A DNA stretch of 39,432 nucleotides, taken from assembly GCF_004010195.1 (NCBI RefSeq), contig NC_057718.1, forward strand, positions 46,155,897 through 46,195,328, given 5' to 3'. The position numbers and the translations under genes are program-made. The stretch's first letter is position 1. Each line of letters opens with the position of its first letter. This DNA is from Chiloscyllium plagiosum (lineage: Eukaryota). This document shows, one piece after another, positions 9,160 to 32,484 of the stretch. Under the pieces are notes generated by a model. That model did no database searches, was not told where the DNA came from, and worked only from the letters and a program-made list of their open reading frames with translations.

Positions 9160-9480
9160 TTGTTTGTCCATTGGATGTGAGTGTCACTGGCTGGCTTAGC
9201 ATTTATGGGCCATCCCCAGTTGCCAATTCATTGGAGTGACTTACTAGGACCATTTCAGAGGGCAGAGCTGAAAATGTGTTGCTGGAAAAGCGCAGCAGGT
9301 CAGGCAGCATCCAAAGAACAGGAGAATCGACGTTTCGGGCATAAGCCCTTCTTCAGAGGGCTCTCTCTTTTCAGAGGGCAGTTAATACATTGCTGTGGGT
9401 CTAGAGTCACATGAAAGCCAGACCAGGTAAGTTCAACAGATTCATTTCCCAAAGAGTCATCTGTAAACCAGATGGGAGTG
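9160..9480 (-). mobile_element. 3' half of a tRNA-derived SINE (same family as 31205-31545); interrupted by a PLE fragment
   Basis: Shares CATTGCTGTGGGTCT(A/G)GAGTCACATG..GCCAGA.CAGGTAAG with 31301-31345, and shares its tail with the LINE at 17340-19555. Confidence 0.8.
9266..9368 (-). mobile_element. Short Penelope-like terminal-repeat fragment (family 2) with 13-bp TSD and intact hammerhead core
   Basis: TSD TTTCAGAGGGCAG at 9253-9265 and 9369-9381. Minus strand 9356-9329 reads CUGAAGA-A-GGGC-UUAU-GCCC-GAAA-CG-UC. Confidence 0.8.
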
Positions 9481-9860: not shown

Positions 9861-10389
9861 GATGTAGACACCATACAGACAACAAGCAAAACTAACATCA
9901 TTTACAAAATACTTTGCAAGAACTGTAACAAATACTACATTGGACAAACAGGCAGAAAACTAGACGCAGGATACATGAACATCAACTAGCCACAAAAAGA
10001 TATGACCACTCTCACTCGTCCTCCTACATATAGATGAGGAAGGACACCACTTTGACTGGGACAACACATCCATCCTGGGTTCAAGCCAAACAGAGACATG
10101 CATGAGAATTCCTAGAAGCATGGCATTCCAACCGGAACTCTATCAACAAGCATATTGATTTGGATCGCATCTACCATCCTCTGAGAAAAATAACATCACC
10201 ACAGGAAATTACATCACCAACCCAAGGAAACCTAAACACATGAATAGAATGTGGGTCACTAACACCAGTATTTCACTGATGATGTTACCTGGTATGGTGA
10301 CGAAATGTCTGAAAACGAACCTTCCAGCTCAGTGAGCAAACTTATATCCAGAACCTCAACCTGAGCTACAAATCTTCTCAAAACTCGCC
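9861..10389 (+). mobile_element. 5'-truncated Penelope-like element (family 1): GIY-YIG endonuclease plus terminal repeat
   Basis: Translates TNIIYKILCKNCNKYYIGQTGRKL..IHEH..GHHFDWDNTSILG..EFLEAWHS. TSD AGT(G/A)TGTTTAGAG at 9848-9860 and 10390-10402. Confidence 0.9.
10272..10313 (+). ncRNA. Minimal type-I hammerhead ribozyme motif in the PLE terminal repeat
   Basis: UUCA-CUGAUGA-U-GUUACC-UGGUAU-GGUGAC-GAAA-UG-UC-UGAA. Stems I and II pair; the stem III palindrome appears to have decayed from CG to UG. Confidence 0.75.
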
Positions 10390-13820: not shown

Positions 13821-14491
13821 GCAAGTTTTGAGAAGATTTATAGCTCAGTTTGAGGTTCTGTACGTAGGTTTGCTCGCTGAGCTGGAAGGTTCATTTCCAG
13901 ATGTTTCATCACCCTACTAGGTAACATCTTCAGTGGGCCTCCAGGCAAAGCACTGCTGCTGATTCCTGCTTTCTATTTATATGTTTGGGTTTCTTTGGGT
14001 TGGTGATGTCATTTCCCATGGTGATGTCATTTCCTGTTCTTTTTCTCAGGGAGTGGTAGATGGGGTCTAACTCGATTGTTTTGTTGATAGGGTTCTGGTT
14101 GGAATGCCATGCTTCTAGAAATTCTCATGCGAGTCTCTGTTTGGCTTACCCTCGGATGGATGTGTTGTCCCAGTCGAAGTGGTGTCCTTCCTTATCTGTA
14201 TGTAAGGATACTAGTGAGAGAGGGTCATGTCATTTTGTGGCTAGTTGATGCTCATATATCCTGGTGGCTAGTTTTCTGCCTGTTGTCCAATGTAATGTTT
14301 GTTACAGTTCTTGCACGGTATTTTGTAAATGATATTTGTTTTGCTTGTTGTCTTTCAAGCAAAAGATAACAAGCAAAACTAATGTCATTTACAAAATACC
14401 GTGCAAGGACTGTAACAAATATTACATTGGACAAACAGGCAGAAAACTAGCCACCAGGATATATGAACATCAACTAGCCACAAAATGACAT
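13821..14491 (-). mobile_element. Penelope-like element (family 1) with a fold-back duplication of its 5' end
   Basis: 13821-14355 is the reverse complement of the 9861-10389 family; 14362-14491 is an inverted copy of 14227-14355. Confidence 0.9.
13897..13936 (-). ncRNA. Minimal hammerhead ribozyme motif (decayed)
   Basis: CCA-CUGAAGA-U-GUUACC-UAGUAG-GGUGAU-GAAA-CA-UC-UGG. Confidence 0.65.
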
Positions 14492-15539: not shown

Positions 15540-16345
15540 TGATTTTTTTGCTATATTTCCTACCACCAGCACTTAATGATCAATTACCTAATGTTTCTTT
15601 TTAAAATTAATTTACAATATCTTATTTTTTTTAAAGAGAGCATTCATTCACAGTGCTTAGTATTACTGTTGGTTTTGCTTATATTTGTGATTTGGACTCT
15701 TCTATTTTTAAGTAATGTACCATTAGAAAGTTGTTGCATCTTGACAAAACTTGCATTTCAATCAACAAGAAATTAGTTCTGCTGTCTGGCTGGTTAATAG
15801 AGATCTTCATGCTGTCTGTACTCACTGAAATAGATGCTGTTGATTGTCCAATTTCTCTGATCTCCAAAGTTTGTATCCAGTCAGTTTCTGATTTGTTTTC
15901 CTAATATTTATCATCAGATCTTGGTGGACTGTCTCAGCTAACCATGATGTGATCTTGACTCGGCAGAATATTTTACCTGCAGTGACAATGTCTATATTAT
16001 CTTCCATAACATAAGAAACTGGGTATAAATATCATGACATTGAAGAATCCAACAAATGTTTATTATAGCCAATTATCATACAGAAACGTTACATTTATCA
16101 GACACCTGAGCTAATATTAAGCTAATACATTACAAAAGAACAATATTAATCAGCATACTTCCAGTAGGATGTCATGCTTCAAGTGATCCTGGCATAAGAT
16201 GGAGTGTGGGATCGCCAGCATCTGCAGCCCTCACGTTTTCTACACTAACAGCTTGCTTTTCAGTTCTGGATGCTTTTGGGTTCTTCTCTGTAACACTCCA
16301 ATTCTATGTGTTGTCACCTTGATTCCAGCATCTTCTGGTTCACCA
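15540..16345 (-). mobile_element. Gypsy PBS-like site, leader and gag N-terminal remnant
   Basis: TGGTGAACCAGAAG directly after the LTR (16345 downward). The weak gag-like strings SINQPDSRTNFLL..KIEESK and LFKKNKIL*INFKKKH resemble NKILERAKFNKR. Confidence 0.45.
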
Positions 16346-23678: not shown

Positions 23679-24138
23679 AGATTAGATTAGGTTACTTACA
23701 GTGTGGAAACAGGCCTTTGGCTCAACAAGTCCACACCGACCCTCCAAAGAGCAACCCACCCAGACCCATTCCCCTACATTTACCCCTTCACCTAACACTA
23801 CGGGCAATTTAACTTGGCCAATTCACCTAACCTGCATGTTTTTGGACTGTGGGAGGAAACCCACACTAACATGGGGAGAATGTGCAAACTCCACACAGAC
23901 AGTTGCCTGAGGCAGGAATTGAACTTGGGTCTCTGGCGCTGTGAGGCAGCAGTGCTAACGGGCAATTTAACTTGGCCAATTCACCTAACCTGCATGTTTT
24001 TGGACTGTGGGAGGAAACCCACACAAACATGGGGAGAATGTACAAACTCCACACAGACAGTTGCCTGAGGCAGGAATTGAACTTGGGTCTCTAGCGCTGT
24101 GAGGCAGCAGTGCTAACCACTGTGCCACCGTGCCGCCC
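23679..24138 (-). mobile_element. HE1-type V-SINE with an internal 158-bp tandem duplication
   Basis: Units at 23800-23957 and 23958-24115. Confidence 0.95.
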
Positions 24139-24513
24139 TAAGTTAGCCAAACCTGTGCTGGGCAGCAGTCTCCACAATATCTCAGATGTTATTGACTAGT
24201 CCACATTCTTCAAAAATCTGATTGCAGCAGAACACAGAGATTGCTTACTCTGAAAGCAGATCCCTGGGGAGTAGCAGGAATGGAGCATCAGACTGCAGTT
24301 GCACAATCATATTCTATACAATCTAAGGACATTGCTCCGAATGTTGAAGACAGTGCTTCCCATACCATTGCTCCTGTCTTCTGAAAACTTTGCCAAACTC
24401 TGTTGCTGCCTTGAATTTAGTCATGATTTGGAGATGCCGGTGTTGGACTGGGGTGTACAAAGTTAAAAATCACACAACACCAGGTTATAGTCCAACAGGT
24501 TTAATTGGAAGCA

Positions 24514-24548
24514 CGCTAGCTTTCGGAGCGACGCTCCTTCATCAGGTG
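24514..24548 (-). ncRNA. Minimal hammerhead ribozyme motif
   Basis: CAC-CUGAUGA-A-GGAGC-GUC-GCUCC-GAAA-GC-UA-GCG; perfect stem II, one stem I mismatch. Confidence 0.72.
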
Positions 24549-24567
24549 ATTGTCCTGATCACCTGAT

Positions 24568-24602
24568 CACCTGATGAAGAAGCATCGCTCCGAAAGCTAG
24601 TG
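24568..24602 (+). ncRNA. Minimal hammerhead ribozyme motif
   Basis: CAC-CUGAUGA-A-GAAGC-AUC-GCUCC-GAAA-GC-UA-GUG; perfect stem I, one stem II mismatch. Confidence 0.72.
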
Positions 24603-24772
24603 TGCTTCCAATTAAACCTGTTGGACTATAACCTGGTGTTGTGTGATTTTTAACTTTGAATTTAGTCATTTACATGAAAAAGATGAAATGTATAATTAAC
24701 TATTACCTGCTGTATTAATGTTACTGGATCATGAAGTTGGCTATAGAAAAGTCCTGTGGTCATCCATAACAG

Positions 24773-24914
24773 GAGAAAGTGAGGTCTGCAGATGCTGGAG
24801 ATCAGAGCCGAAAATGTGTTGCTGGAAAAGCGCAGTAGGTCAGGCAGCATCCACCTGTTCCCTGGATGCTGCCTGACCTGCTGCGCTTTTCCAGCAACAC
24901 ATTTTCGGCGGCCA
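24773..24914. mobile_element. Fold-back Penelope-like mini-element (family 2), hammerhead absent, 13-bp TSD
   Basis: 47-bp arms at 24807-24853 and 24863-24909 (1 mismatch); TSD TCATCCATAACAG at 24760-24772 and 24915-24927. Confidence 0.85.
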
Positions 24915-25079
24915 TCATCCATAACAGCCCATTTCAAAACATCCAGGCCATTTTTTTTCTCTCAACAACTATTTTTTAATCACATCTGCCTTACCTGTGA
25001 CTACTTCTAGCTGCACTTGATACTACAACAACAGAATAAGTTGGATTTGTACAGCATCTTTAAGGAAATAAAATGCCAC

Positions 25080-31204: not shown

Positions 31205-31545
31205 TTTTTTTTAATGTAGATTCACAGGATGAGGGCATCACTGGCTAGGTAGTATTTATTACACATCCCTAATGGCCCTGAGGGTGGTTTAGAGTCAACT
31301 GCATTGCTGTGGGTCTGGAGTCACATGGAGGCCAGATCAGGTAAGGATGGCAGTTTCTTTGCCTGAAGTATATTAGGTTTTTCTGACAATTGATTCACAG
31401 TCATCATTAGATTATTAATTCCAGATATTTATTGAATTCATATTCCACCATCCACTGCGGCGGGATTCAGATCTGGGTCCCCAGAACATTAACTGGATCT
31501 CTGGATTAACAGTACAGCGATAATACCACTAGGCCATCACCTGCA
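31205..31545 (-). mobile_element. tRNA-derived SINE with a tail shared with the 17335-19555 LINE
   Basis: Minus-strand A box TGGCCTAGTGG, degenerate B box, and tail TTAGGGATGTGTAATAAATACTACCTAGCCAGTGATGCCCTCATCCTGTGAAT. Confidence 0.82.
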
Positions 31546-32216: not shown

Positions 32217-32472
32217 GATTTTGATATGCCGGTGTTGGACTGGGGTGTACAAAGTTAAAAATTGCACTACACCAGGTTATAGTCCAACAGGTTTAATTGG
32301 AAGCACTAGCTTTCGAAGCAACGCTCCTTCATCAGGTGGTAGTCGAGGGCTCAAACCTAACACAGAATTTATAGCAAAAATTTACAGTGTAATGGAACTG
32401 AAACTTTACATTGAAAAATTGATTGTCTGTTAAGCCTTTCATCTGTTAGAATACCGTGATAGTTTCACTTCT
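32217..32472 (-). mobile_element. Penelope-like 3' end (family 3) with hammerhead motif at 32304-32338
   Basis: Near-identical to 24425-24548. Minus strand reads CAC-CUGAUGA-A-GGAGC-GUU-GCUUC-GAAA-GC-UA-GUG. Confidence 0.85.
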
Positions 32473-32484
32473 TCCACTTCTATG

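Follow-up and report, generated by a model that had tools for sequence, protein, structure and literature searches.

The palindromic insertion between positions 24411 and 24669 of the window (the whole stretch of 39,432 nucleotides analysed here) is, with a probability that we put at about 0.9, a single, young and dead Penelope-like element (PLE) insertion that was inverted in a one-off event, either by priming on both target strands or by fold-back of the first cDNA. Judged from its letters, it fits a truncated PLE insertion with an inverted pLTR on every structural feature that could be tested. This arrangement has already been described for PLEs, and most likely no new ribozyme-hairpin family is involved.

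Anatomy of the insert

The insert comprises 231 bp between two copies of the target-site duplication (TSD) TTGAATTTAGTCAT (24411-24424 and 24656-24669), which are identical at 14 of 14 positions; the chance of an exact 14-mer is about 7e-7 when 121 offset pairs are allowed. No ORF of at least 120 aa overlaps it. Its two arms (24458-24550 and 24566-24658) are inverted head-to-head, each 93 nt long, and complementary at 90 of 93 positions (three mismatches). Read outward from the centre, both have the layout CAC-CTGATGA-A-(5-bp stem)-GAAA-GC-TA-G(T/C)G, with one CTGATGA...GAAA hammerhead core per strand (C3 at 24545 on the minus and 24571 on the plus strand), the two cores lying 26 nt apart.

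The left arm is a 5'-truncated pLTR on the minus strand (24458-24553) that starts 8 nt upstream of the hammerhead core, with loose ends behind 24553. It contains a minimal type-I hammerhead motif (24514-24548, minus strand) with a predicted cut between 24517 and 24516 and an A-C mismatch in helix I at the private change 24515, as well as an ATTAAA polyadenylation signal (24500-24505, minus strand), which reads AATAAA in 48% of the family depth of DNA run X1 and has poly(A) 12-15 nt downstream. Only this arm has 33 extra nt, an AC-rich tail (24425-24457, minus strand) that also occurs on another copy at 32.2 kb of the window and would correspond to the distal RT start of published PLEs, as far as the accessible parts of the sources go (PMC3846280, PMC8557442, PMC11167929). 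The right arm (24566-24658, plus strand) is an inverted 5'-truncated pLTR that runs from 5 nt upstream of the core to a tail-less terminus, its last 3 nt falling in the TSD; its minimal hammerhead motif (24568-24602, plus strand) has a predicted cut between 24599 and 24600 and an A-C mismatch in helix II at the private change 24580.

At both ends the TSD shares 2-3 nt with the element, TTG on the right and, the family ending at 24422-24424, AT or CAT on the left, where the last 2-3 nt of the TSD copy also match the end of the tail. By composition, 3-nt overlaps have chances of about 1.7% and 1.8% each, at this one site. In the centre, CCTGATCA occurs twice (24554 and 24562), and the third CCTGAT, at 24570, already belongs to the ribozyme core. 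Since family sequence leaves the window after 24553, the true junction is the 12-nt non-family stretch CCTGATCACCTG (24554-24565), which amounts to 1.5 extra copies of the 8-nt unit ATCACCTG.

The original prediction of a 231-bp non-coding insertion with a 14-bp TSD, made of two diverging 93-nt arms with one hammerhead motif per strand, is borne out by these features. It had also described a centre of slippage repeats, which stands, with the left arm now extended as family sequence to 24553 and the junction narrowed to 24554-24565, and a 3'-terminal extension on the left arm only, which is correct as well, except that the right arm ends at a second, tail-less terminus of the family and not at random.

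The arm family in public sequencing runs

We compared positions 24326-24775 with four of 24 listed public sequencing runs, namely the DNA runs X1 and X4 (organism A) and X10 (organism B), and the RNA run X21 (poly(A) library, sampled at about 2 in 100). Contigs of the arm family numbered 91,779 in X1, 44,329 in X4 and 95,078 in X10. Family loose ends with unrelated AT-rich flanks pile up at 24422-24424 (545 + 357 contigs in X1), and a second pile stands at 24457/24655 (282 in X1, 109 in X4, 238 + 148 in X10). These two piles with unrelated flanks indicate that the family has both a tailed and a tail-less terminus, and it is at the latter that the right arm stops. At the two private changes, the family has the pairing base of position 24515 in 91% of the X1 depth, and G at 24580 in 86%.

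The polyadenylation signal of the pLTR is in use: poly(T) reads of X21 (299 + 281) end at 24485/24488 and poly(A) reads (120) at 24631, with polyadenylation sites within 24485-24505 and 24611-24631. As these sites lie upstream of both RT starts, transcripts that end there are missing the priming region, and copying would require read-through RNA. The tail boundary (24425-24470, minus strand) resembles an intron 3' end, with TTTAAC, a pyrimidine-rich run and CAG, and the sequence at the family end runs on into ATG, which may reflect an intron-exon-ATG layout of the parent element. A 23-nt arm motif had no match in metagenome and viral contigs, collections that are ill-suited to vertebrate repeats.

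Likeness to known PLE insertions

Three features recur between the insert and PLE insertions: a pLTR truncated at its 5' end, next to which lies an inverted copy, a tail of 30-40 bp on one end (33 nt here) in a family with two termini, and a TSD of variable length at an AT-rich target (14 bp here). In the available text of Arkhipova et al. (2013; PMC3846280), elements are completed by an adjacent inverted pLTR within the TSD, a 31-bp tail is present on one of the two, and palindromes occur at head-to-head junctions; Craig et al. (2021; PMC8557442), in the part accessible, present the layout of inverted pLTR, one-sided tail and TSD as typical of PLEs. The insert thus resembles the units inserted by EN+ PLEs, as these sources portray them, in its inverted 5'-truncated pLTR, one-sided tail, TSD and palindromic or slipped junction. 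It differs from them in that both arms are cut to the last ~90-130 nt of the pLTR, and for this reason the insert has no ORF; its TSD is 14 bp long, against 8-10 bp in the rotifer PLE cases of the accessible text.

A second likeness is to PAc (Poseidon, Anolis carolinensis; Frangieh et al., 2024; PMC11167929), for which the available part of the study reports a cut 26 nt after ATG, a distal RT start at +111-118 and a tail lying between two RT starts. In three copies of the insert's family the predicted cut also falls 26 nt after the ATG in CTGATGA, with tailed ends at +116 to +121 and tail-less ends at +82 to +85. PAc is further like the insert, on the published portion seen, in having two ends a tail apart, an AC-rich tail, an AT-rich target and no RNA ends at the cut site. 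The ATG opens an ORF in PAc, whereas in the insert's family a stop follows after 8 codons in all three copies, and the two are likened by geometry.

The published pLTR, tail and TSD anatomy, taken together with the minimal hammerhead consensus, thus supports the earlier view that the arms are probably PLE terminal repeats with minimal hammerhead motifs.

Other PLE ends in the window

The insert's family is present in a second copy (32217-32476, minus strand), which carries the tail, the pLTR, the hammerhead and about 130 nt more of upstream sequence, the letters of which match the RNA loose ends at 24550. No inverted arm was seen at this copy, where an N gap begins about 90 nt further on, and a 24-aa frame upstream of it had no Pfam match.

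Seven PLE-end insertions of the window were examined, not counting three short family B BLAST hits (478-498, 16210-16240 and 31302-31334), and three of the seven, each from a different family, are inverted head-to-head. Besides the insert, these are a family B stub (24760-24927) with a 13-bp TSD, a tailed long arm and an inverted tail-less short arm, and a family C insertion (13821-14491) in which a GIY-YIG fragment and a hammerhead end module are inverted head-to-head around a junction at ~14356-14361. The family B stub, 90 bp from the insert, is inverted downstream of its hammerhead; it is therefore a stub without a hammerhead, and the palindrome is independent of the ribozyme. In family C, the inversion duplicates the 5' part of the long arm and ends inside the ORF/endonuclease region, not at a terminus. 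Autonomous EN+ PLEs encode a telomerase-like RT together with a GIY-YIG endonuclease. The GIY-YIG match (E = 2.4e-5) is found in family C, no GIY-YIG or RT sequence having been traced to the insert's own family, and the core-to-end length is 113 nt in family C against 119-121 nt in the insert's family. Family C would thus link the architecture, and not the insert's own family, to a GIY-YIG ORF. TSDs are 13, 13 and 9 bp long at three of the six other insertions, and 6-7 bp long or absent at the remaining three.

Some minor features of these insertions deserve mention. Both family C copies (13821-14491, with no detectable TSD, and 9877-10388, with a TSD of 9 bp) hold GIY-YIG remnants and a hammerhead-like core. 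A tail-less single-arm stub of family B (9253-9381) has a 13-bp TSD that overlaps its 3' end by 3 nt, and at its 5' junction CT repeats come after a short flank duplicate, TTCAGAGGGC, which makes this a further templated insert. The short arms at 24553, 24566, ~9360 and ~16686 (n = 4, two families) all start no more than ~8 nt before the hammerhead core, and none of them at the cut site. The alignment of the organism B contig breaks off at 24772, where the first TSD copy of the 24760-24927 stub ends; this stub may also be absent in that organism, although only 3 nt of it fall in the compared stretch.

Hammerhead motifs as probable passengers of a hairpin

Cervera and de la Peña (PMC4209133) give NNN CUGANGAH G..C GAAAN NUH NNN as the consensus of minimal hammerheads. 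Both arms, as well as the hammerhead at 32.3 kb of the second family copy, have the corresponding core (CUGANGA, GAAA and NUH) with the extra base after A9, the G10.1-C11.1 pair and a palindromic helix-III stub (AGCU in the insert); the nearest layout among those listed is that of the kuruma shrimp PLE, and the published alignment contains no cartilaginous fish (PMC4209133). Helices I and II are both paired in the 32.3-kb copy and in the family majority, whereas neither arm of the insert keeps the two intact, each having one damaging private change. No hammerhead family of Rfam matched the insert at E ≤ 1, which leaves the published minimal consensus as the basis of the ribozyme call. Matches to microRNA precursors in Rfam were rejected, being below gathering scores and of a kind that any long hairpin gives. 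Opposite-strand pairs of minimal hammerheads 100-700 bp apart are already known, one of them at a truncated PLE 5' end (PMC4209133, Fig. S4A); the insert departs from these in the 26-nt spacing of its cores and in the damage to both motifs.

That a transcript of the insert could form a long hairpin, as had been foreseen, is well supported by its predicted fold of -170.8 kcal/mol (z = -23 against 200 shuffles). Forcing the hammerhead helices would cost 45.7 (plus strand) or 58.9 (minus strand) kcal/mol in the full element, against 9-10 kcal/mol in single arms, and the antisense arm is transcribed first, whichever strand is read. Minimal hammerheads show no cleavage as monomers and weak cleavage as same-strand multimers (PMC4209133), and in PAc the hammerhead motif depended on protein and was dispensable for insertion, according to the accessible part of that study (PMC11167929). 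Family transcripts in X21 cross the cut site with no drop in depth (862 vs 883 in adjoining bins). No pile of RNA ends was seen at the cut site in this run, a poly(A) library that would lose short cleavage products, and the depth over the flanks was 0 with about 2 in 100 of the run read, which does not prove silence.

The fold energies, the lack of a same-strand partner and the private change in each arm make self-cleavage of the insert unlikely. Read-through RNA would instead fold as a hairpin of ~90 bp with the ribozyme fold shut off, and the hammerheads would be passengers. The alternative originally offered, that a transcript could either self-cleave or fold, therefore leans heavily towards its hairpin half: the ribozyme fold carries a predicted deficit of 46-59 kcal/mol, the antisense arm comes first and a same-strand dimer partner is missing.

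How the palindrome may have formed

In L1, 5' inversions arise by twin priming, in which both target strands prime cDNA and the TSD flanks the inverted structure. The inverted part of L1 is an upstream, non-overlapping piece, whereas the arms of the insert both copy the same end module. We consider a two-strand-priming route to be the probable origin of the insert. The RT-endonuclease of the element would have placed one nick in each strand of an AT-rich target, with 14 nt between the two, as the TSD suggests, and each nick would have primed cDNA on the element RNA through pairing of 2-3 nt. One cDNA may have begun at the distal start (tailed) and the other at the proximal start (tail-less), both halting 5-8 nt upstream of the hammerhead core, where the arms are seen to end. 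The cDNA ends would then have been joined with the 12 nt of slipped, templated synthesis that the junction displays (1.5 extra copies of ATCACCTG). The palindrome would accordingly be built anew on insertion and would not itself be the spreading unit. Cutting and extension of both target strands from two RT starts have been reported for PAc in vitro, in the part of the study available (PMC11167929). In the same study, the RNA sites used for priming were reported to lack homology to the cut DNA (PMC11167929), and the 2-3-nt overlaps of the insert are therefore evidence from one site only. A literature search turned up nothing specific on twin priming or on junction repeat addition in PLEs, which does not imply that none is in print.

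A one-off PLE insertion in which the second arm arose by fold-back self-priming of the first cDNA 3' end is a possible but clearly less likely route. The cDNA would fold on its own ATCAGG/GTGAT, slip twice on AT, be extended back along itself and be trimmed at the tail boundary. Precedent exists in the accessible text of Arkhipova et al. (PMC3846280), who explain head-to-head repeats with junction palindromes by self-priming, and of Craig et al. (PMC8557442), who attribute the tail to endonuclease resolution. In the insert itself, the addition begins with CCTGAT, which is the reverse complement of the ATCAGG at 24541 on the same strand, and, measured from the core, the ends of the two arms differ by no more than 3 nt; the internal end of the family C inversion also fits fold-back better than two fixed starts. 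However, the terminus of the short arm is also used by non-inverted copies, such as the tail-less single-arm copy at 9266-9356, the short arm overlaps the TSD by 3 nt like a primed end, and most of the inverted junctions listed from the public runs (see below) are asymmetric. A catalogue, in one long-read assembly, of the hundreds of distinct inverted junctions could separate two-strand priming from fold-back; the single copy alone decides nothing on that step of the PLE cycle.

For the 12-nt junction, telomerase-like repeat addition by the PLE RT is a speculative and rather improbable source. The RT would reach the 5' end of a template RNA starting just upstream of the hammerhead (AUCACCUGAU), and the last two bases would re-align on the second AU, the 8-nt unit being copied 1.5 more times before joining. 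If true, an RNA start would account for the 5' ends that cluster at the hammerhead edge, and a relative of telomerase would be seen to re-use its template processively. A repair polymerase engaged in iterative fold-back synthesis explains the letters of this one junction equally well.

The centre does not appear to spread as a unit

Under a further alternative, which we regard as very unlikely, the whole hairpin with the centre of the insert is a non-autonomous unit, transcribed and re-inserted by PLE protein. Such a unit holds the end module bound by the PLE protein on both strands, and pLTRs are able to act in trans. The inverted joints tell against it: the 15 listed, out of 875, are all different left-to-right inverted junctions. 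Their starts range from -13 to +59, counted from the core, and several contain short inserts. Among these 15 listed joints, 13 are asymmetric and two exactly symmetric; the latter could be assembly or library fold-backs, and joints at likeness below 95 or with sides shorter than 30 nt can be repeat artefacts. Nearly all of the depth at the inner end of the arm runs into upstream sequence of the family and not into the centre of the insert. Once the three family bases that it contains are taken into account, the centre bin keeps 0.46-1.6% of the depth found at 24549; though only ~1% of the arm depth, this residue far exceeds single-copy depth. None of the 24 pieces listed of 222,845 spans the centre, not even those from organism A with its filled site, which suggests that hairpins may be under-assembled.

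Of 2014 reads in the RNA run, 2007 match the compared stretch with only a part of their length and at most 7 fall wholly within it, and RNA depth over the flanks is 0, again in disagreement with a transcribed unit. Moreover, a duplex of ~90 bp would, to judge from the fold energies, bury the binding and priming sites, and the second copy in the window (32217-32476) continues into ordinary upstream sequence. The varied junctions and the small residual at the centre favour junctions made anew at each insertion. The proposal of a non-autonomous hairpin family spreading with the same centre is thus not upheld; the check suggested for it, a genome-wide search with the central junction, was run indirectly on reads and contigs and points to repeated de novo formation, not to propagation as a unit. 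A literature search turned up no palindromic non-autonomous PLE family, PLE hairpin siRNA or shark PLE account, which does not imply their absence from print.

A few other junctions are frequent. Those joining 24505 to 24575 and 24513 to 24566 reach contig depths of 449 (X4) and 446 (X10), against single-copy depths of ~11.5 and 35, and the first is also present in 11 RNA reads with 11 starts; three junctions occur in all three DNA runs. This depth or recurrence, which speaks for the unit hypothesis as far as it goes, indicates that some of them may be multicopy or recurrent.

Insertion site and age

The left flank is joined to the element with no differences in both DNA runs of organism A (118 nt in X1, 104 nt in X4). 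In X10 (organism B), a contig of 1131 nt aligns from 24656 onward, preceded by 297 letters that do not align to the element, and the left flank is covered at the same depth (35.2) as this contig. The site is thus apparently empty in the related organism B, with what is probably a single copy of the TSD sequence; the empty-site joint itself lies outside the rows listed. Flank divergence between organisms A and B is 3 in 117, from which ~2.4 arm mismatches would be expected if the insertion dated from their split; three are seen. A-to-I editing was dropped as a source of the arm mismatches, as it fits one change only.

A fold-back artefact of the assembly or library is a highly improbable source of the palindrome. 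The 500-N gap in the window, the lack of a listed contig spanning the centre and the low coverage of the right flank in organism A would be in keeping with one, but not the exact 14-bp TSD on both sides, the three arm mismatches, the 12-nt slipped junction or the exact flank-element junctions of X1 and X4.

A MITE or other DNA transposon, which the insert recalls in being short, non-coding, hairpin-shaped and TSD-flanked, has next to no probability, as an overhang of 33 nt keeps the inverted repeat from being terminal on the left, TSD lengths vary among related insertions (14, 13, 13 and 9 bp), and the arm also exists on its own behind long unique upstream sequence and receives poly(A) in the sense orientation, in accordance with the retro-derived origin put forward from the start. 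In retrozymes, the hammerheads stand in a same-strand tandem layout. Metazoan retrozymes are short, non-coding and hammerhead-bearing and possibly mobilised by PLEs (Cervera and de la Peña, 2020; PMC7229834; PMC8969392), but bear classical type-I hammerheads and have circular RNAs in the accessible parts of these sources; the motifs of the insert are minimal and opposite-stranded, and this candidate was rejected. Stubs of this sort mimic MITEs and microRNA precursors and are open to mis-annotation.

Further repeats are present in the window, including many fragments that we take to be CR1-like LINEs, and its repeats presumably resemble those of sharks. A 158-bp tandem duplication lies inside a repeat that we assume to be SINE-like (23800-24115), and the 500-N gap, from 32568 onward, is bordered by short tandem repeats.
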